Of a DNA stretch of 32,000 bases, positions 4,522 to 20,977 are shown one piece after another. Location: the NCBI RefSeq assembly GCF_000008565.1, contig NC_001264.1, forward strand, positions 157,418-189,417. Reading direction: 5' to 3'. A model generated the notes under the pieces. It saw nothing but the letters and a program-made list of their open reading frames with translations, was not told where the DNA came from and searched no databases. How positions within the stretch are numbered: position 1 is the first letter of the stretch; the number at the start of each line of letters is the position of its first letter. Position numbers and translations under genes: made by a program. Origin of the DNA: Deinococcus radiodurans R1 = ATCC 13939 = DSM 20539 (lineage in GTDB: Bacteria; Deinococcota; Deinococci; Deinococcales; Deinococcaceae).

Positions 4522-5186
4522 GCGCCGGTTCGCTGGGAGGCCGCTCGCGCCTCGACGAGCAGCTCGAGCGCATGACCGCCGATTTTCTCTCCATGCAAGA
4601 CACGCTCGCCGGTCAACTGCGGGCGCTGCAAGCCGCGTTCGCGCAGGGCGATACCAGCGTCCGCGAGGAAGTCGAGCGTCTGGACCGCGACATCGACGCC
4701 GCCAACGCCCGCATCGAGGGTGAGGCGCTGCACCTACTTGCCCGGCAGTCGCCGGTGGCACACGACCTCAAGCTGACGCTGCTGATTTTGCAAAGCACCC
4801 CCGACCTGGAACGCGCCGGAGACTACGCCAAGCACGTGGCGCGCCGCCTGTCTGCCCTGCGCGCCGGAACAGCCGGCCACCCGTCCGAGTTCGCGCAGGC
4901 GCTCGCGCTGCTGCTGCAGATGGCGACCACCCTGCGCGCCGCCTCGTCCCCGATGAACGCCGCTCTCGCCCACGAGGTGCGGGCACTCGACGATCAGGTG
5001 GACGCGCTCTACGACCGGGCGGTCGAGCAGGTGCTCGCCGGGCGTCCCGACGCCGCGCTCGCCGACACCCTGGAAGCGAGCCACGCCTGGCGGGCCGCTG
5101 AGCGTCTGGGCGACCACCTCGTCAACGTGGCGCAGCGCACCGAGCGCCTGCTCGCCCGCCCGGCCCCGAGCGACGCCCCGGCCTGA
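4518..5186 (+). CDS. phoU: Phosphate signalling complex protein PhoU
   Basis: ATGA start/stop overlap with pstB. It has the duplicated PhoU helical pattern (…[28 protein letters not shown]…, …[12 protein letters not shown]…) and the expected operon position. Confidence 0.9.
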
Positions 5187-5993: not shown

Positions 5994-6463
<470 letters not shown>

Positions 6464-6503
6464 GCTGTGGCCCACAGCATTTCCCTTTCCCCCGGAGGAC
6501 CCC

Positions 6504-6932
6504 ATGAGTGACATCCTGACCTGTACCCACTGCCAGGCCAAAAACCGCGTCGGTGCTGTGCCCGCCGGACAGGTGCCGAGCTGCGCCCGCTGCGGCGCCG
6601 CGCTGCCCTGGCTGCACGACGGCACCGACGCGACCTTCGAGCAGGACCTTCAGACAAGCGTGCCGGTGCTGGTGGACTTCTGGGCGCCGTGGTGCGGCCC
6701 CTGCCGCGTGATGGGGCCGGTTCTCGAAGACCTCGCCCGCGACCTGCCCGGCAAGGTGCGGGTGGTGAAGGTCAACGTGGACGAGAACCCGCGCACCGCC
6801 GCCCGTTTCGAGGTCCGCAGCATTCCCACGCTGCTGATGTTCAAGGACGGGGAAGAGGTGGACCAGATGGTCGGCGTAACCCAGAAGGCGGCGCTGCGGG
6901 CGCGGGTGGAACACCTCAACCAGCTTTCCTGA
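6504..6932 (+). CDS. trxC: Thioredoxin with N-terminal zinc-finger extension (Trx2/TrxC type)
   Basis: The N-terminus carries CTHC...CARC (two CxxC pairs). The thioredoxin core has a WCGPC active site. GGAGGA Shine-Dalgarno precedes the ATG at 6504. Confidence 0.9.
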   Translation: MSDILTCTHCQAKNRVGAVPAGQVPSCARCGAALPWLHDGTDATFEQDLQTSVPVLVDFWAPWCGPCRVMGPVLEDLARDLPGKVRVVKVNVDENPRTAARFEVRSIPTLLMFKDGEEVDQMVGVTQKAALRARVEHLNQLS

Positions 6933-6977
6933 ACGGCGCTGCTTCGCTGGCTGCTGGAAGTCAAAACCGGCTTGTTT

Positions 6978-6998
6978 GGTTATGCTATTTACATAACC
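6978..6998. promoter_or_regulatory. Perfect palindrome GGTTATG-N7-CATAACC. Candidate repressor operator that resembles the Deinococcus RDRM (DdrO site) as I recall it.
   Basis: Read directly: ggttatgctatttacataacc, with 7-bp arms that are exact reverse complements. It lies in an AT-rich patch 62 nt upstream of the ATG at 7060 and overlaps the predicted -35. Confidence 0.5.
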
Positions 6999-7016
6999 AC
7001 TCCTCGCGTGTAGACT
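6988..7016 (+). promoter_or_regulatory. Sigma-70-like promoter for the 7060-12994 operon
   Basis: TTTACA (6988-6993), a 17-nt spacer, then TAGACT (7011-7016). GAGG Shine-Dalgarno is at 7051-7054, before the ATG at 7060. Confidence 0.4.
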
Positions 7017-7059
7017 CAAAGGTGAAAACCACCACCTTCTCTGTTGCCCCGAGGTTCCC

Positions 7060-7464
7060 ATGCTGGTTGAAACCAAGATTGTAGGCCGCCGCACGCCGTT
7101 CGAGCGCAAACCCTTCGACCTGCCCGCTGGGCCGCACACCCTGCGGAGCCTGCTTACCCACCTCGTCGCCGGGGAAGTCGCCGCCTATGAAGAGCGGCAG
7201 GGCAGCGTCGGCGTGCTGCGGGTACTGACCGAGCAGGAACTTTTGAGTGGCGCCGCCGCCGGCAAAATCCAACTGGCACCGCAGGAGCGGGGCGGCGTGG
7301 TCACGCCTGAGGAGGCGACCCGCACCGCCCTGCGCGCCTTTGAAGACGGGCTGTACTACGTCTTCGTGGACGACGAGCAGGTGGAAACGCTTGACGAAAC
7401 CGTTGCCCTACAGCCCGACAGCACCCTGTTGCTGCTGCGCCTGACCGCGCTGGCGGGGGGCTGA
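7060..7464 (+). CDS. Hypothetical 134-aa protein with ubiquitin-like (beta-grasp-like) N- and C-terminal segments, ending ...LRLTALAGG-stop
   Basis: Third codon positions are G/C-rich and a Shine-Dalgarno is present. The stop lies 2 nt before the next ATG. The C-terminus YVFVDDEQVETLDETVALQPDSTLLLLRLTALAGG compares with the ubiquitin tail [34 protein letters not shown]. The N-terminus MLVETKIVGRRT compares with [12 protein letters not shown]. Confidence 0.7.
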   Translation: MLVETKIVGRRTPFERKPFDLPAGPHTLRSLLTHLVAGEVAAYEERQGSVGVLRVLTEQELLSGAAAGKIQLAPQERGGVVTPEEATRTALRAFEDGLYYVFVDDEQVETLDETVALQPDSTLLLLRLTALAGG

Positions 7465-7466
7465 GC

Positions 7467-10400
7467 ATGGCCGGGGGTCTGGACCTCACCGAGTATTTCC
7501 GCCAGTACGAGCAGCCCTGGCAACCCGACTTCGCGGCCCGTCTCGCCGCCGCGCCCGAGTCGGTGCAGGGCTGGGTGCAGGCGCGGCTGACCGAGGGAAA
7601 AACCTGGCCCGCGATGCAAGAGCAGGCGCGGGTCTGGAGTGAGGCTTTACTCAGCGCTTCCCCGGAGGAATTGCGGGCGCTCACCGGCGTTCTGTTTCCT
7701 CAGTTTCCTGAGCTGGCCGCCCGCGCCTACCGCACGGTGCTCGAAACGCGGCCCTACACGCGGGGGCTGCTGCGCCGCGCCTTTCGCGCCGGGGCGCAGG
7801 GAAACGACGCCGAGCGCGGTGGGGCCGCCGCCGGGTGGCTGTGGAGCCTCTGGACGCTGCTGCGGGCCTACCCGGAAGGCGTGCTGTGGGTGGCGGAGGC
7901 GGCGGGGCTGTTCGAGGCTTATGAGAGCCGCCTGCTGGGGCCACTGCTCGCGCAGGCGGTGAGTGAGGGAGATGCGGGCGTCCTGCAACTGCTCAAGGAC
8001 ACCGCCAGCACCCAGCACCCCGTCGCCCGGATGGGGCGGCACGTGCCGCAGGCGCTCCTCGGCAGCGACGACCCGCAGGCGTGGGAGTATGCCCGGCAGT
8101 TGCTGCTCGCGGCGCAGCGGCAAGAGGGGCTGCGACAAGTCATCCTCGAAACGGTGGACGAGGCACACCCCGGCGCTTTTCCCCTTTTCCTGAACACGGT
8201 GCTCGATGAAGACCTGCTGCGCTTTGCTGCGGTGCTGCGGGCCGCCTGCGTGTGGTACGGCCTGGGCTACGACGTGACCGACATGAAAAAGGTGCGGCAG
8301 TTGCTCACGCTGGCGCGGGGCTATCTCGAAGACGCGGCGCAGGTGACACAGGCCGTGAGCAGCGGCAGCGGCGAGGAAGTCTATATGGCGCTCTACACGC
8401 TGGGGATGCGCGACGCGGACGAGGCCGCCGCGCTCGCCCGGCCCCTGCTCACCGACCCCGACCCCGCGCGCCGCATGGCCGCCGCGCAGTTTCTGAGCGC
8501 CGCGCACTTGCTCCAGTCCGCTGACCTCGCCCGCCTCCTTGCCGATGAAGACCTGCGGTTGGGCGCGGTGGCATTGGCCCCGGGCTCGTACCCTTCCGGC
8601 TGGGTTACCCCTGAGAACACGAACCCCCTGACCTTCGACGCGCTGCGGGCCTACGCCGAGCGTCTCTCCCGCGCGCCCCGGCACGACCCGCTGCTCTTTC
8701 CCTGGCTGGGCGACGTTCCCGACCGCGCCAGCGTGACGGATGGGCTGGTCGCCGTGCTGCCTCCCGACGAACTCGGGCGCATCGTGCCGCACCTGGGCGA
8801 GCTGTCCCCCGGCGGCAAAAGCTTTCTGCTCGCGCGGCTCCGGGCGCTGGCCGAGCGGAGGGACAGGGGAGAGACGGTTCGCCTTCCCGACGATACACGC
8901 TTCATCCTGCTGACCCTGCTGCAAGACCGCAGCAGCGCCACGTCGCAGGAAGCGGTGACGACCCTCACGGCGCTGAGGCTGGAGCTGTCGGGCGAGGAGC
9001 GCACGCTCGCCCACGACCTGCTGCGGCGCAAATCCGCCGACCTGCGCCGGGGACTGATTCGCCTGCTCGCGGCGGACCCCGCCCAGGGCGCGGCGAGCGC
9101 GGCGGCGCTGCTGGCCCTCAAAAGCACCGAGCAGCGGCAGGCGGGATTGCAACTCCTTGAAGAAGTCGGCGGCCTGCCCCCCGCCGATTTTCAGCCCAAA
9201 AACGTTTCGGAAGCGACGCTCCTCGCCAAACTCGCCGCGCCGGAGAGCCAGCTCACCCTGAACAACGGCCTGGGCCTCTTCGACCCGCAGGACCTCAGCC
9301 AGCCCCAGCCGCTGCGCCCGTCTGACAACGACTTCGTGGCCGACGTGGAGCGCGGCGCGGAGCTCCTTCGTTCGCTCGACGACTTTCTGGCCGAGCACGC
9401 CGAAACCCCGGTCTCGGGCACCGGCTGGGACGGCGAAACGACGGAGCTGCTCACGAATCTGTCGCCCTACTGGCTGAGTGCGAGAGTGGGGCGCGACATG
9501 CCGCTCGCCGGGCTCTGGAACGGCTGGTGGGCGGCGCGGGCCGGCGCGCAGGAAGGCGACCTCACCCGGATGGCCTGGGCGCTGGGGCACCGGGTCGACC
9601 GCACTGAGACGACCGAAACCGAGCTGCTTCAGGAATTGAGCGAGGGCGGGGACACCTCCCCGGAACAGGAACACGCCCGCCTCCTGCGCCAGCGCCTGAT
9701 TCAGCAGACCCTGCACGCCGTTCTGGGGCCACCCGTTCCGCTCAAGCTCGACCGGGCGCCGCTTATCGAGCCGGTGCTGGACTACCTGTCCACGCAAGAG
9801 CTGACCGAAGTGGACACCGGGATGCAACTGGACGCCTGGGAAAGCGCGCTGAGCCGCCTGCCAAGCGATACGCCCCTGCTGAAACTGGGGGAGGAGCGGT
9901 GGCAGGTCGAAGACCCGCGCTCGCTGCTCGGTCCCCTGGTTCTGCAAGGCATCGAGCTGGCGGCCCTGCCCGCCGAGCAGTTCCAGCAGCTCTGGCGAGT
10001 TCAGTTGCACCACCATGCGGCCTTTCCAAACCTGCCCCGCCTGCGGATGTCCGCCGAGATGCTCATTCTCGCCGAGCGCGCGGGGCTGGCGAACCGCGCC
10101 GACCTGCTCGACCTGCTCATCGGGGAGCGGAACGCCGGCATGGGGGACGTGTATTACGGCAATTCCTTCGACGACTTGCGGAGCTATACCCGGCGCAAGC
10201 TGTCCGACCTCCTGCCGACCTCGCCCGCCTGGATGCAGGCCGTGAACGACGCCCGTGACCGCGTGCTCGCCGTCGAGCTGGAGCGCGGCGACCTCGAAAC
10301 GCCCGCCACCCTGCCCGCGCTGGCGCTGCAAAGCGTGAGCGGCGCGGCCCGGACGCTGCGGCTGCTGGCCGGCCTGGGTAAACAACCGCTCCGGCGCGGG

Positions 10401-12347
10401 TACAGCGGCCACAGTCTGGGCAAGGACGCGACCTTCAGTCACCTGCTGCGGGTGTCGTTTCCTGACCCCGGCGACACCGCCCAGACTGTGCGCGAGCAGG
10501 CGAAAACCCTGGGGCTGAGCGACCCCCGGCTGCTTGACCTCGCCATGTTCGCGCCGCAGTGGGCCGAGCTCGTCAGCGGCGCGGTGGGCTGGAAGGGGCT
10601 GGCGGACGGCGTGTACTGGCTGCACGCCCACACCCGCGACTCTCAGTGGAGCGTGCCGACGGACATCCGCGAGGCCTGGGAAGCCGAAATCAGCGAGCGC
10701 ACGCCGCTGCGCCCCACCGACCTCACCGAGGGTGCCGTGGACGTGGCGTGGTTCCGGCGGATGCACCGCGCCCTGGGCCGCGCGCACTTTCAGACCTTGC
10801 TCGGCGCGGCCAAATATGCGTCGTCCAGTGGCGGGCACAAACGCGCCGAACTGTTCGCCGCGGCCATTCTGGGCGAGGTGCCGGAAGACACCCTGCTCGC
10901 CCGCATCCGCGAAAAACGCAACCAGGACGCGGTGCGGGCGCTGGGGCTGCTGCCGCTGCCGAAGGGCAAAAAGGCCGCGCAGGTGCTGGAGGCGCGTTAC
11001 CTCACCCTCGTCACCTTTCGCCGCGAGACCCGGCAGTTCGGCGCGCAGCGGCAGGCCAGCGAGCGCCTCGCCGCCGACATCGGCCTACAAAACCTCGCCC
11101 GCAGCGCCGGATACGCCGACCCCCAGCGCCTGATGTGGGCAATGGAAGCGCGCATGGCCCCCGACTGGCAGCAGGTGGTGACCGCCGATGGGGTGACCGT
11201 GAGCGCCGAACTCGATGGGGCGGGCGCAGCGACCCTGCTCGTCCGGCGCGGCGAGAAGCCCCTCAAGACCCTGCCGCCCGCACTCAGAAAAAACCCCGAG
11301 GTGCTCGCGCTGCGTGAGGCCGTCAAAGACCTCGCCGCCACCCGCACCCGCATGCGCGCGGCCCTCGAAGAAGCGATGGTGCGCGGCGACCACTTCACCC
11401 CCCAGGAACTCCGCGACCTCGCGCGGCACCCGATCATCGCCCCGATGCTCGGGAGTCTGGTGTGGGTGCTCGGCGAAGGGCCGCTGGGCTTCTGGGAAGA
11501 CGAAAGCCTGCGGACGCTGACCGGAGAACTCCCGCTGGGCGACCAGGCCCTACGCCTCGCACACCCGCACGACCTTTTTACTGGCGGGCAGTGGCGCGAG
11601 TATCAGGCGGCAGTGCTTAAGCGCCAGCTCACCCAGCCCTTCAAGCAGGTCTTCCGCGAGTATTACCCGCTCACCGCCGCCGAAAAAACCGCCCAGCGCA
11701 GCGTCCGCTACGAGGGCCACCACGTTCAGCCTGTCAAGGCCGCCGCACTCCTCAAGGCGCGGGGCTGGGTCAGCATTTACGACGAAGGCACCCGCAAGAC
11801 CTTCCACGACGAGGGCCTCAGTGTCTGGATTGACGATGCGCTTAGCGCCGGCACCCCGAACGAGGTGGAAGGCCTGCCGCTGCACGCCGCCTATTTCATG
11901 CGGGTGGGCGAGGCGCAGCCCCTGCCACTGGCCGCCGTTCCGCCCCGGCTGTTCAGCCAGGTCTTGCGCGACCTCGACCTCGTGGTGAGTGTGGCCCACG
12001 TGGGCGGCGTGGACCCCGAAGCCTCGCAGAGCACGGTGGAAATGCGCGAAAGCCTGCTGCGCGAGACTCTGCGCCTGCTGAAGCTGAAAAACGTGCGCCT
12101 CGAACACGGACACGCCCTGATCGACGGTCACCACAGCCGCTACAGCGTGCACCTCGGCAGCGGCACCGTTCACCGCCAGCCGGGGGGCTTCCTGTGCATC
12201 GTGCCGGTTCACAACCAGGCGCAGGGCCGCCTCTTTCTTCCCTTCGCCGACCCCGACCCGCGTACGGCGGAGGTGGTAAGCAAGGTGCTGCTGCTCGCCG
12301 AAGACCGCAAGATTCAGGACCCGACGATTCTGGAACAGTTGCGCTGA
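7467..12347 (+). CDS. Giant (1626 aa) alpha-helical repeat protein. The C-terminal ~600 aa resemble the DUF4132 / MolR-YehI family. Function unknown.
   Basis: Uninterrupted 4.9-kb ORF with strong G/C third-position bias. HEAT-like repeats occur (e.g. LLTDPDPARRMAAAQFL). The C-terminal motifs APQWAELV, TPLRPTDLTEGAVDVAWF, GGHKRAEL, NQDAVRALGLLPL, RQFGAQRQASE, QPFKQVFREYY, LRDLDLVVSVAH and YSVHLGSG match my memory of DUF4132-family proteins. No search was possible. Confidence 0.85.
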   Translation: MAGGLDLTEYFRQYEQPWQPDFAARLAAAPESVQGWVQARLTEGKTWPAMQEQARVWSEALLSASPEELRALTGVLFPQFPELAARAYRTVLETRPYTRGLLRRAFRAGAQGNDAERGGAAAGWLWSLWTLLRAYPEGVLWVAEAAGLFEAYESRLLGPLLAQAVSEGDAGVLQLLKDTASTQHPVARMGRHVPQALLGSDDPQAWEYARQLLLAAQRQEGLRQVILETVDEAHPGAFPLFLNTVLDEDLLRFAAVLRAACVWYGLGYDVTDMKKVRQLLTLARGYLEDAAQVTQAVSSGSGEEVYMALYTLGMRDADEAAALARPLLTDPDPARRMAAAQFLSAAHLLQSADLARLLADEDLRLGAVALAPGSYPSGWVTPENTNPLTFDALRAYAERLSRAPRHDPLLFPWLGDVPDRASVTDGLVAVLPPDELGRIVPHLGELSPGGKSFLLARLRALAERRDRGETVRLPDDTRFILLTLLQDRSSATSQEAVTTLTALRLELSGEERTLAHDLLRRKSADLRRGLIRLLAADPAQGAASAAALLALKSTEQRQAGLQLLEEVGGLPPADFQPKNVSEATLLAKLAAPESQLTLNNGLGLFDPQDLSQPQPLRPSDNDFVADVERGAELLRSLDDFLAEHAETPVSGTGWDGETTELLTNLSPYWLSARVGRDMPLAGLWNGWWAARAGAQEGDLTRMAWALGHRVDRTETTETELLQELSEGGDTSPEQEHARLLRQRLIQQTLHAVLGPPVPLKLDRAPLIEPVLDYLSTQELTEVDTGMQLDAWESALSRLPSDTPLLKLGEERWQVEDPRSLLGPLVLQGIELAALPAEQFQQLWRVQLHHHAAFPNLPRLRMSAEMLILAERAGLANRADLLDLLIGERNAGMGDVYYGNSFDDLRSYTRRKLSDLLPTSPAWMQAVNDARDRVLAVELERGDLETPATLPALALQSVSGAARTLRLLAGLGKQPLRRGYSGHSLGKDATFSHLLRVSFPDPGDTAQTVREQAKTLGLSDPRLLDLAMFAPQWAELVSGAVGWKGLADGVYWLHAHTRDSQWSVPTDIREAWEAEISERTPLRPTDLTEGAVDVAWFRRMHRALGRAHFQTLLGAAKYASSSGGHKRAELFAAAILGEVPEDTLLARIREKRNQDAVRALGLLPLPKGKKAAQVLEARYLTLVTFRRETRQFGAQRQASERLAADIGLQNLARSAGYADPQRLMWAMEARMAPDWQQVVTADGVTVSAELDGAGAATLLVRRGEKPLKTLPPALRKNPEVLALREAVKDLAATRTRMRAALEEAMVRGDHFTPQELRDLARHPIIAPMLGSLVWVLGEGPLGFWEDESLRTLTGELPLGDQALRLAHPHDLFTGGQWREYQAAVLKRQLTQPFKQVFREYYPLTAAEKTAQRSVRYEGHHVQPVKAAALLKARGWVSIYDEGTRKTFHDEGLSVWIDDALSAGTPNEVEGLPLHAAYFMRVGEAQPLPLAAVPPRLFSQVLRDLDLVVSVAHVGGVDPEASQSTVEMRESLLRETLRLLKLKNVRLEHGHALIDGHHSRYSVHLGSGTVHRQPGGFLCIVPVHNQAQGRLFLPFADPDPRTAEVVSKVLLLAEDRKIQDPTILEQLR

Positions 12348-12409: not shown

Positions 12410-12994
12410 ATGCCTGTTCCTGTCCCTCGCGCTTACCCCCGCTTGAGCCATGCCATCGGCTTCGACGACGCGCCGTTTGCCCGCGAGTGGCGCGGCGACG
12501 TGCGGATTTTTGGGGCCGTCTACGCCGGGCCGACCCTGCACGCCGTGGTCAGCGGGCGGGTCCGCCGCGACGGGCGCAACGCCACCGACGAACTCAGCCG
12601 GCTGGTCACGGCGCAGGCCGAGCACTTGCAACTGGTGTTCTTGCAGGGTATCGCGCTCGCGGGCTTCAATGTGGTGGACCTCGGCGCCCTGCACGCCCGC
12701 ACGGGCCTGCCGGTGCTGGTGGTGGCCCGCAGGAAACCCCGGCTCGACCGCATTCGCCGCGCCCTGCTCGAAGAAGTACCGGGCGGCGCGCGCAAGTGGC
12801 GCCTCATCGAGCAGGCAGGGGAGATGGAGCCCTGCGCTGGCCTCTACGTCCAGCGGGCGGGCCTGTTGCTGGCAGAGGCGGAAGCCGCGCTCGGCACCTT
12901 TTGCCTTACCGGGCGCATTCCTGAACCTCTACGCACGGCCCACCTGATTGCCGGAGGCGTGACGCGCGGCAGCAGCGCGGGCCAGCGCGTTTAA
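12410..12994 (+). CDS. DUF99/UPF0215-family protein (endonuclease V-like fold; Endo_dU family)
   Basis: ATG at 12410 (MPVPVPRAYPRLSHAIGFDDAPF...). The family-typical motifs GFDD near the N-terminus, DG.NATDEL, GIALAGFNVVD and GLPVLVVARRKP are present. The 12194-12409 extension overlaps the giant gene and is rejected. Confidence 0.8.
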   Translation: MPVPVPRAYPRLSHAIGFDDAPFAREWRGDVRIFGAVYAGPTLHAVVSGRVRRDGRNATDELSRLVTAQAEHLQLVFLQGIALAGFNVVDLGALHARTGLPVLVVARRKPRLDRIRRALLEEVPGGARKWRLIEQAGEMEPCAGLYVQRAGLLLAEAEAALGTFCLTGRIPEPLRTAHLIAGGVTRGSSAGQRV

Positions 12995-13237: not shown

Positions 13238-14038
13238 CTAACCGGCGGCCCGTTCCCGCCGTCCGGCAACACTGCGGACCAGCAGCAGCAATCCGAACGC
13301 GACGAGCACCATCACCGCGCTCAAGACCAGTGCGGGCGCGAGGTCGGATTCCAGCGCGGCGTAGATGGCCAGCGTGACCGTGCGGGTTTGGCCTTGCAGC
13401 GACCCGGCAAACAGGATGGTGGCGCCGAATTCGCCCAGCGCCCGCGCCCAGGCAAGGACCAGCCCCTCCAGCAAAAAGGGAAACGCCAGTGGCCAGGTGA
13501 TCAGCCGGAAGACCTGCCCGTCACTCGCGCCATCGGTGCGGGCAGCGTCCTCGGCGTCGCGGTTCACCGCCTGAAACCCGGCGCGGGCGGTCCGCAGGTA
13601 AAAAGGCGCCGACACGAACAGTTGCGCGAGCACCACCGCCGCCGTGGAAAAGGCAAGCTGAATCCCCGCGAGTTCGAGCGCCGGCCCCAGCAGCCCGCCG
13701 CGCCCGAAGGTAAGCAGCAGTCCAACCCCCGCCACCACCGGCGGCAACACGATGGGGAGGTCAAGGAGCGTTTCGAGGACGGGCTTGCCCGGAAAATCGA
13801 AGCGCGCCAGCAGCCACGCAACCGGCGTGACCAACGTGACGGTGAGCAGCAGCGTGATTCCGGTGGTCAGCAGACTGACGCGCAGGGCGTCCCCCACCGC
13901 CCGGCTCGCCAGCGCCGGCCAGAACGACGCCGTCAGCCCCCGCGTGAGCAGCACCAGCACCGGCACGACCAGAAACAGCGTCAGCGCCCCCCCCAGCAGC
14001 AGGGCCAGCGGAGGCGCGGAGCGGGGCGGGCGACTCAT
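13238..14038 (-). CDS. modB: Molybdate ABC transporter permease ModB
   Basis: 266-aa multi-TM protein with the ABC permease loop (ARTDGASDGQVFRLITWPLA) and ModB-like sequence. It lies immediately downstream of modA. Confidence 0.9.
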   Translation of the reverse strand: MSRPPRSAPPLALLLGGALTLFLVVPVLVLLTRGLTASFWPALASRAVGDALRVSLLTTGITLLLTVTLVTPVAWLLARFDFPGKPVLETLLDLPIVLPPVVAGVGLLLTFGRGGLLGPALELAGIQLAFSTAAVVLAQLFVSAPFYLRTARAGFQAVNRDAEDAARTDGASDGQVFRLITWPLAFPFLLEGLVLAWARALGEFGATILFAGSLQGQTRTVTLAIYAALESDLAPALVLSAVMVLVAFGLLLLVRSVAGRRERAAG

Positions 14039-14099: not shown

Positions 14100-14855
14100 T
14101 CAGCGCGGGCTCTGGAAGCCCCATTTACGCAGAATCTTCTGGCCTTCGATCGAACGGACGTACGCGATGAAGGCTTGCGCGGCGGCAGCGTTGCGCGACG
14201 CCTTGAGCGTGCCGATAGGGTACCTCGCGGTCTGGTTGAAGCGCGTCGGCAGCGCGACCACTCGCACGTCGTTTTTCAGGGCGGGCGTCACGTCGCTGCG
14301 GTAGACCACGGCGGCGTCGGCCTCGCCCAGCCCCACCTTCAGTGCCACCTGCCGCACGTTGGGCTCCTCGCTCACCACGTTTTTCATAAACCGCGCCGAA
14401 AAGTCCTTGCCGTAGGTGCCCGCCTGATCAATGGCCCCCAGCATCCGCCGGGTGTAGTCCCCGACCGGCACGGCCTTGTCGGCAATCACGATTCGGACCC
14501 CCGGCGCCGTCAGGTCACGCAGGGTGCTGACTTTGCGGCTATTGCTCGGCACGATGACGGCGAGTTTGTTGCTGACGAACGGCTGCCCGGCCACGACCAA
14601 TCCGGCCTTGACCAGCGGGTCGAACTGGGCATTGTTCGCGCTGGCGTACACGTCGGCCCGCGCCCCATTTTCGAGTTGGGTACGCAGCGCCTGCGACCCG
14701 GCGAACTGAAAAACGGTCTTGTTGCCGGTGCGGGCGTCGAACTGCTGGCCGAGTTCGGTAAAGGCGTCAGTCAGCGAGGCGGCGGCAAACACGGTGAGCT
14801 GAGCGGCGGAGGCGGTGCTGCCCAGCAGCAGGGTGGTCAGGACAATCAAGCGCAT
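14100..14855 (-). CDS. modA: Molybdate ABC transporter substrate-binding protein ModA
   Basis: Signal peptide MRLIVLTTLLLGSTASAAQ followed by LTVFAAASLTDAF, YASAN and ADAAVVY, which are typical ModA motifs. GAGGAGG Shine-Dalgarno is present. Confidence 0.9.
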   Translation of the reverse strand: MRLIVLTTLLLGSTASAAQLTVFAAASLTDAFTELGQQFDARTGNKTVFQFAGSQALRTQLENGARADVYASANNAQFDPLVKAGLVVAGQPFVSNKLAVIVPSNSRKVSTLRDLTAPGVRIVIADKAVPVGDYTRRMLGAIDQAGTYGKDFSARFMKNVVSEEPNVRQVALKVGLGEADAAVVYRSDVTPALKNDVRVVALPTRFNQTARYPIGTLKASRNAAAAQAFIAYVRSIEGQKILRKWGFQSPR

Positions 14856-20846: not shown

Positions 20847-20866
20847 AGAACAAAAGTCTCTGCGCC

Positions 20867-20969
20867 CGTCACACTCCCTCCGCTGGTGCTAACCAGTTCA
20901 GGTTCATAGGGTTAGGCCCGAGTTGCCCTCTCAGCCTCCGGCCCATATGCGGAGGCACCCCTGTTGACG
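20867..20969 (-). promoter_or_regulatory. TPP (thiamine pyrophosphate) riboswitch aptamer
   Basis: The minus strand reads CGTCAACAGGGGTGCCTCCGCATATGGGCCGGAGGCTGAGAGGGCAACTCGGGCCTAACCCTATGAACCTGAACTGGTTAGCACCAGCGGAGGGAGTGTGACG. It contains the conserved GGGGTGC, CTGAGA, ACCC..TGAACCTGA.CTGG.TA..ACCAGCG.AGGGA blocks and a closing P1 helix. Confidence 0.92.
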
Positions 20970-20977
20970 ATGCCCCG

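Follow-up and report, generated by a model that had tools for sequence, protein, structure and literature searches.

A near-consensus DdrO operator on the promoter of the two-gene operon DR_A0165-DR_A0166 of Deinococcus radiodurans

Results and Discussion

The palindrome analysed here is a near-consensus DdrO binding site on the promoter of the two-gene operon DR_A0165-DR_A0166. We estimate the probability at about 95% that its 17-bp core, at positions 6980-6996 of the window (the whole 32-kb stretch of DNA that was analysed), is the radiation/desiccation response motif (RDRM) of this operon, through which the operon is repressed by DdrO and relieved by IrrE. Published experiments place DdrO on the site in vivo and document the induction of the genes upon DdrO depletion as well as the IrrE dependence of the DR_A0166 protein (PMC8533742), and our analysis adds a near-maximal motif score, uniqueness in the window and conservation at the same position across the genus. 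A study of 2021 had already reported the site itself, the binding of DdrO to it and the induction of DR_A0165-DR_A0166 in dependence on DdrO and IrrE, and the operator reading is therefore correct and not new. The genus-wide conservation of the operator has not been reported for this operon in published work and is new here.

Sequence and score of the operator

The palindrome is a perfect 8-7-8 inverted repeat, TGGTTATG-N7-CATAACCA, located at 6977-6999 (no strand assigned), with its arms at 6977-6984 and 6992-6999 lying 7 nt apart. An earlier note, made from the sequence alone, had described it as GGTTATGCTATTTACATAACC at 6978-6998 in an AT-rich patch. This sequence is present exactly as described and the perfect inverted repeat extends one base further on each side. 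The patch is indeed AT-rich, since the RDRM 17-mer TTATGCTATTTACATAA (6980-6996, no strand assigned) contains only 3 G/C in 17 positions as compared to about 68% GC in the window. Assignment of this 17-mer as a DdrO operator is based on a position weight matrix (PWM), a consensus match, a published ChIP-seq peak and conservation.

A single match to TTATG-N7-CATAA is found in the 32-kb window, and 100 shuffles that preserve the dinucleotide composition gave none. If two mismatches are allowed in the core pattern, about one chance match is expected per window and therefore it is the exactness of TTATG-N7-CATAA that counts. The published degenerate consensus TTMYGYNNNNNRCRKAA finds a zero-mismatch match in the window only at 6980-6996, and the same 17-mer fits the RDRM class pattern TTMYGYNNTNNRCRKAA with 0 mismatches.

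The PWM was built from 31 other RDRM sites of D. radiodurans presented in Table 2 of Eugenie et al. 2021 (PMC8533742). The DR_A0165 site itself and reverse-complement duplicates were left out, the matrix was symmetrised and the base composition of the window was used as background. The 17-mer scores 27.14 of a maximum of 30.64 bits, and in a leave-one-out ranking it is second to ddrC (27.5) alone, with ddrB, ssb and ddrF slightly lower. The exact tail probability is ~6.6e-11 per position, which corresponds to ~2e-4 matches expected per 3.28-Mb genome, so that the PWM check proposed in the earlier note is clearly passed. The runner-up 17-mer in the window reaches 11.9 bits; the motif is thus present as a single copy, as had been stated from the sequence, both by the exact pattern and by the matrix.

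It could be argued that the palindrome has arisen by chance in an AT-rich intergenic patch and has no regulatory role, since short palindromes are common in intergenic DNA and about one core match per window is expected at two mismatches. However, the exact pattern is found in 0 of the 100 shuffles, the PWM gives P ~7e-11 per position, and the site is kept in 16 of 16 Deinococcus orthologous promoters despite their diverging flanks. Together with the published ChIP-seq and expression data (PMC8533742), these observations make a chance origin exceedingly improbable.

Published evidence for the site

In Table 2 of Eugenie et al. 2021 (PMC8533742), an RDRM of DRA0165, GGTTATGCTATTTACATAAC, is presented at -83 of the start codon, and DRA0165 is labelled as 'putatively in operon with drA0166'. 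This 20-mer is identical to our site in sequence and in distance (7060 - 83 = 6977). The 34-nt MEME site given for DRO_A0167/DRA0165 in Table S4 of the same study is the exact reverse complement of window positions 6978-7011. Table S4 also contains one DdrO ChIP-seq peak at DRO_A 164001-164701, with MEME/FIMO matches in all modes, which corresponds to ~6602-7302 in the window and encloses the site.

The gene coordinates in Table S7 of that study (PMC8533742) run colinear with those of the window, shifted by 157,399, placing the thioredoxin gene DRA0164 (163903-164331) at 6504-6932 and DRA0165, identical to DRO_A0167 (164459-164863), at 7060-7464. DRA0166 is given there as 164864-169744 where 164866-169746 would be expected, a 2-nt difference, and DRA0167 (169807-170391) falls on 12410-12994 with an offset of 157,397. 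The tagging primer NE285 used by the authors matches 12326-12345, just ahead of the stop codon of the giant gene DR_A0166. These agreements place the window on chromosome II of D. radiodurans R1 or of a nearly identical strain.

RNA-seq values in Table S7 (PMC8533742) are fold changes versus 1 h, at 4, 6, 8, 16 and 24 h. Upon DdrO depletion, DRA0165 changes by 1.3, 3.5, 5.5, 3.7 and 7.1 at these times, as compared to -1.1, -1.35, -1.2, 1.07 and 3.6 in the control, and DRA0166 by 2.5, 7.3, 8.1, 1.4 and 6.6, as compared to -1.4, -1.5, -1.8, -1.8 and 2.4. At the protein level, mitomycin C induces V5-tagged DRA0166 in the wild type but not in the delta-irrE strain (PMC8533742), and a peptide of the DR_A0165 product (SEP068184) is increased after 8 kGy of gamma irradiation and after H2O2 (PMC9650054). 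A search of the literature for an EMSA on the DR_A0165 site found none. The fit of the 17-mer to the RDRM, which had earlier been proposed from the sequence, is thus borne out by the PWM, by conservation in the orthologues and by published experiments on the very same site.

The DR_A0165 site was outside the original bioinformatic regulon (Makarova 2007; Blanchard 2017 Table 4) and joined the regulon only with the 2021 ChIP-seq/RNA-seq study (PMC8533742). In Table 2 of the latter, DR2574 is listed as ddrO of D. radiodurans. Neither the ddrO nor the irrE/pprI gene is located within the 32-kb window. Besides DdrO, D. radiodurans also encodes IrrE (DR0167).

Conservation of the operator in Deinococcus

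Twenty Deinococcus orthologues of the giant protein were aligned, and the alignment was used to fetch 80 related loci (L002-L081) from one-genome-per-species contigs; the locus of D. metalli (L082) was fetched separately. All 16 other Deinococcus loci (15 in L002-L081 and that of D. metalli) carry an RDRM at the corresponding place in the promoter, which scores ~20-27 bits and lies 54-95 nt upstream of the DR_A0165 orthologue. In D. metalli it reads TTACGCTATTTACATAG and lies at -81. The distance to the giant gene is 470-520 nt in 15 Deinococcus loci and 487 nt in the window. In 15 Deinococcus loci the RDRM is the top PWM match of the whole 10-17-kb locus (a close second in L011), and the remaining matches in these loci do not exceed 13.8 bits, barring a second strong site in L011. 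The check on orthologous promoters proposed in the earlier note therefore has a clear outcome in favour of the operator.

The exception, L011, is a Deinococcus MAG in which a second strong RDRM, TTACGTACATAGCATAA (4906-4922, 24.2 bits), is found ~620 nt upstream of the operon's own RDRM and presumably serves a neighbouring gene.

A background-corrected test with a conservative locus-specific background was applied to the 400 nt ahead of the DR_A0165 orthologue, in the window and in L002-L081. E is at most 3e-4 for the window and for every one of the 15 Deinococcus loci, and it is 1.6e-5 for L049, a Deinococcales MAG. No RDRM is present in the corresponding 400 nt of the 60 loci from other taxa, comprising cyanobacteria, Planctomycetota, Acidobacteriota, Chloroflexota, Bacteroidota, Trueperaceae and others, where E is at least 0.02, as expected by chance over 60 trials. 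Strong PWM matches that had appeared in AT-rich outgroup loci with the GC-rich background (for example 21.3 bits in L063) were rejected as they were gone under locus-specific backgrounds.

Two Deinococcales MAGs show an arrangement ahead of the module in which a strong sigma-70 promoter (10/12 matches in L049, 5127-5290; 12/12 in L064, 5026-5200) is directly followed, after its TATAAT, by an RDRM-like sequence, TTACGTTAATAACAGAA in L049 (E = 1.6e-5) and TTTAGCTGTAAGCATAA in L064 (E = 0.04). A terminator-like hairpin with a T-run is located ~110-130 nt further downstream, 70-90 nt before the start codon, and could represent a leader, an attenuator or a short damage-induced transcript.

The sequences flanking the 17-mer diverge among the Deinococcus orthologues, and the GG..CC ends of the palindrome are found in D. 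radiodurans alone, with A/T in their place in the orthologues; the conserved element is therefore the 17-mer. Accordingly, of the longer palindrome described in the earlier note, the 17-mer stands as the conserved part while its GG..CC ends do not. The presence of the site throughout the genus means that the operon is a core member of the radiation/desiccation regulon wherever it is present and not a quirk of D. radiodurans.

The site might also be read as a transcription terminator or RNA hairpin ending the upstream thioredoxin gene, DR_A0164, as the stop codon of that gene (6930-6932) is only 45 nt away and the palindrome could fold into a stem of 8 bp. The stem is, however, AT-rich and without a T-run after it, and the terminator scan does not call the site. 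Moreover, the site is kept where the upstream gene is not a thioredoxin gene, and it keeps a fixed distance to the downstream gene. We give the terminator practically no weight and retain the reading of the site as the DdrO operator of the downstream genes.

Promoter, leader and proposed mechanism

The operator lies over a predicted sigma-70-like promoter on the plus strand. Its -35 element TTTACA (6988-6993) is inside the RDRM and its -10 element TAGACT (7011-7016) follows 17 nt past the -35, both by match to the consensus and at just the places where the earlier note had put them. This TTTACA-17 nt-TAGACT arrangement is the sole sigma-70-like match in 6000-8000, where 0.1 are expected from shuffles. 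From it we predict the transcription start at about 7022-7025; a literature search for a genome-wide TSS map of D. radiodurans gave none usable. A Shine-Dalgarno sequence GAGG (7051-7054, plus strand) is found in a conserved GAGGTTCCC-ATG context, as judged from the sequence and from the orthologue alignment by eye.

The overlap of the RDRM with the predicted -35 is kept in 13 of 16 orthologues, the -35 and -10 elements being consensus predictions. TTTACA occupies RDRM positions 9-14 in 11 of the 16 Deinococcus orthologues, and two more carry TTTACG or TATACA at the -35 place with TAnnnT 17 and 16 nt downstream. In these 13 orthologues TAnnnT follows 17 nt past the -35 (16 nt in L006), and then a short leader and GAGGTTCCC-ATG. 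In the three loci of the aquatilis group the -35 place reads TAAACG and has no matching -10, although here too the promoter region is overlapped by the RDRM.

A second perfect inverted repeat, AAGGTG-N8-CACCTT, is located at 7019-7038, just past the predicted -10 and around the expected transcription start, and a GGTGAA...CACC(AT) element is seen at the same place in ~10 Deinococcus orthologues. This repeat could be a second operator or an element of the 5' end. Folding of the 5' UTR (7017-7075) against shuffles gave a z-score of 0.14, which is not significant.

The second repeat raises the question of whether a regulator other than DdrO binds or shares the palindrome, or whether a second control element exists, so that DdrO would be only part of the control. 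Besides the repeat at 7019-7038 and its GGTGAA...CACC counterparts in the orthologues, such a view draws on the 2.4- to 3.6-fold rise of the operon at 24 h in control cells, where DdrO is retained (PMC8533742); an additional input, e.g. stationary phase, may account for this rise. However, it was DdrO itself that gave the ChIP-seq peak and its depletion alone induces the genes (PMC8533742), the score of the site is on a par with those of the strongest DdrO sites known, and the repeat is without a known binding protein and folds as RNA no better than shuffles. We therefore regard control by another regulator as very unlikely, slightly less so than a chance palindrome or a terminator, and an additional regulator would add to the control by DdrO and not replace it.

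With DdrO as the regulator, the account best supported by the data has a dimer of this XRE-family repressor on the two half-sites (TTATGC / GCATAA-type) in unstressed cells, where it would cover the -35 hexamer together with the adjoining upstream end of the spacer and thereby block RNA polymerase from the promoter. Cleavage of DdrO by the metalloprotease IrrE (PprI), set off by irradiation, by desiccation or by another genotoxic or oxidative stress, would then vacate the operator, and DR_A0165-DR_A0166 would be transcribed. This corresponds to the standard mechanism of the RDR regulon, for which background is given in PMC5552922 and PMC8533742; occlusion of the -35 is the mode of repression that we infer for this promoter.

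The regulated unit

The first gene of the operon, DR_A0165 (7060-7464, plus strand), is an open reading frame colinear with DRO_A0167, which encodes a putative MoaD/ubiquitin-like protein of 134 amino acids and is induced up to 7.1-fold on DdrO depletion. The second, DR_A0166 (7467-12347, plus strand), encodes a giant protein of 1626 amino acids with the Pfam domains DUF5724, DUF4132 and DUF7737 and is induced up to 8.1-fold. In a tblastn survey of 80 loci from many phyla, 76 have a DR_A0165 homologue as the gene directly preceding the giant gene, and DR_A0165 and DR_A0166 thus form a conserved two-gene module. The regulated and conserved unit is this pair.

DR_A0167 (12410-12994, plus strand), a DUF99 gene matching Endo_dU in Pfam, is a doubtful member of the operon and probably belongs to it by read-through. 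Its matches to Endo_dU in NCBIfam are below the cut-off. A DUF99/Endo_dU gene is absent from all 80 related loci, and the giant gene of D. metalli and D. taeanensis has a convergent gene as its downstream neighbour, so that DUF99 was rejected as a conserved operon member. On DdrO depletion DR_A0167 is induced 1.4- to 3-fold (PMC8533742). No terminator-like site was found in the 62-nt gap between DR_A0166 and DR_A0167, and therefore read-through is probably the simplest explanation for this weak induction. Where the earlier note had counted a Ubl/giant/DUF99 operon in the radiation regulon, the first two genes do belong there and the membership of DUF99 was overstated. The weak coupling of DR_A0167, a homologue of a uracil-DNA endonuclease, to the damage regulon is confined to D. 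radiodurans and may have arisen by an accident of gene order.

The DR_A0165 and DR_A0166 proteins

DR_A0165 homologues end in ...LRLxALxGG-stop, and the C-terminal Gly-Gly is invariant in all 34 aligned sequences. Some of the orthologues carry MoaD/ThiS family names in UniRef, and a similarity of the DR_A0165 product to MoaD/SAMP1 has also been predicted in PMC9650054. The AF2 model of DR_A0165 has a pLDDT of 78 and contains a low-confidence insert of ~30 residues. A Foldseek search of the PDB with this model returned MoaD and ubiquitin as its top matches, which are weak (E 0.09-1.4, TM 0.45-0.54 on the target). DR_A0165 has no match in Pfam or NCBIfam. The label 'Ubl' used in the earlier note is thus plausible and not proven. 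The original annotation of DR_A0165 was seemingly an N-terminally truncated version of 83 amino acids (P0196).

The only constant neighbour of the DR_A0165 homologues is the DUF5724/DUF4132/DUF7737 protein. No E1-like (ThiF/MoeB) or MoaE/ThiG-type partner was seen adjoining them in the loci examined, and Pfam finds no ThiF/MoeB or MoaE domain in DR_A0166. A sequence search of the PDB and an NCBIfam scan gave nothing for either protein, and a PADLOC scan of DR_A0165, DR_A0166 and DR_A0167 gave no matches to defence systems. The C-terminal 397 residues of DR_A0166 (DUF4132 and DUF7737), modelled by AF2 with a pLDDT of 84, have a best PDB match of E = 0.14, which is not meaningful, and a literature search on the function of DUF5724, DUF4132 and DUF7737 found no functional study.

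One may speculate that the pair is the Deinococcus copy of a largely unnoticed module spread over many phyla, in which the Gly-Gly protein would be activated by, or attached onto, the ~1600-residue giant as a tag or sulfur carrier. This idea of a new bacterial ubiquitin-like system draws on the conserved pairing (76/80), the invariant Gly-Gly, the weak beta-grasp match and the damage-inducible expression, and we consider it possible but rather doubtful. If true, Deinococcus would respond to DNA damage by turning on a ubiquitin-like system of a type new for bacteria. What still merits experimental attention at this locus is the widely distributed pairing of a small Gly-Gly protein with a giant one.

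Genes for a molybdate ABC transporter lie right past the operon on the minus strand (modB-like, 13238-14038; modA-like, 14100-14855), and DRA0168 is annotated as 'molybdenum ABC transporter permease' (PMC8533742). In D. metalli a MoeA gene (L082, 5190-6389) is located ~3 kb upstream of the module, and in D. taeanensis SufE and rhodanese genes (L083, 3882-5326) are located ~4-6 kb upstream. A MoaD-like first gene with neighbours of molybdenum and sulfur metabolism might point to trafficking of molybdenum cofactor or of sulfur, or may be a coincidence.

The upstream gene DR_A0164 (6504-6932) encodes a thioredoxin of the Trx2 type with an N-terminal Zn-ribbon, and this thioredoxin is reported to bind the DR_A0165 product (PMC9650054). 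Its expression rises over time, up to 4.7-fold in control and 12-fold in DdrO-depleted cells (PMC8533742); since the rise is seen in both, DR_A0164 is regulated by stress or growth phase. It has no RDRM of its own, and its adjacency to DR_A0165 is not conserved in other species among the 80 related loci. Elsewhere in the window, a TPP riboswitch (RF00059) is found at 20857-20972 on the minus strand (58.6 bits, above the gathering score), and there are no tRNA genes.

Disagreement with an earlier functional study

Our results do not agree with PMC9650054 (2022), in which it was stated that no RDRM is present upstream of DR_A0165, that the gene is therefore outside the RDR regulon and that the protein occurs only in Deinococcus. 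All three statements are contradicted by the sequence, the PWM, the ChIP-seq and RNA-seq data of PMC8533742 and the tblastn survey. The model in this functional study of SEP068184 (PMC9650054) was based on the absent RDRM and on the restriction of the protein to Deinococcus. Both premises are wrong, and the contradiction in the literature is thereby settled. In addition, the C-terminal tags used there (PMC9650054) would mask the Gly-Gly of DR_A0165, which matters if it is a ubiquitin-like or sulfur-carrier protein.

Comparison with known systems

DR_A0165 shares with the beta-grasp proteins MoaD, ThiS, SAMP and ubiquitin the Gly-Gly at the very C-terminus, and MoaD and ubiquitin are its top, though weak, fold matches. 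In contrast to them, it is 134 residues long with an insert of ~30 residues, no E1-like partner was seen adjoining it, and its constant partner is a giant protein.

The operators of the RDR regulon (ddrB, ddrC, ssb, ddrF, DR1143 and others) are bound by DdrO and relieved by IrrE/PprI. The sites of ddrB (TTATGTTATTTACGTAA), ddrC (TTATGTCAAAAACATAA) and DR_A0165 (TTATGCTATTTACATAA) belong to the same class of 17-bp palindrome, and like the other RDRMs the DR_A0165 site lies over the predicted core promoter, carries a DdrO ChIP signal and goes with DdrO/IrrE-dependent induction. A difference is that DR_A0165 and DR_A0166 are not recognisable DNA-repair genes.

A similar case, from D. deserti and other deinococci, is the operon ddrTUVWX (SWIM zinc-finger ... 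VWA CoxE-like), which is also RDRM-controlled and strongly radiation-induced and whose function is unknown. In contrast to DR_A0165-DR_A0166, ddrTUVWX is absent from D. radiodurans. The Deinococcus loci that were inspected showed no genes for SWIM, MoxR or VWA proteins alongside the DR_A0165-DR_A0166 module. In E. coli, the DUF4132 genes yehI and molR adjoin a set of SWIM/MoxR/VWA genes, yehLMPQ. This suggests that the ddrTUVWX and DR_A0165-DR_A0166 operons may be parts of one wider functional system.

E. coli MolR (WGR and DUF4132) has been described as a member of the LexA regulon (PMC8533742). A search with simple LexA/SOS-box patterns (Cheo, gamma, alpha, cyanobacterial) upstream of the modules of other phyla gave three scattered matches and no enrichment over control regions; these simple patterns thus do not point to SOS control of the module in other phyla. 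As regulatory systems, LexA with its SOS boxes and the pairs of an XRE repressor and a COG2856 protease (ImmR/ImmA of ICEBs1) resemble DdrO in that the repressor is a dimer acting on a palindromic operator that overlies the promoter, and in that proteolysis lifts the repression upon DNA damage. A difference lies in how the repressor is lost, as DdrO is cleaved by a separate metalloprotease whereas in the LexA/SOS system RecA stimulates self-cleavage.
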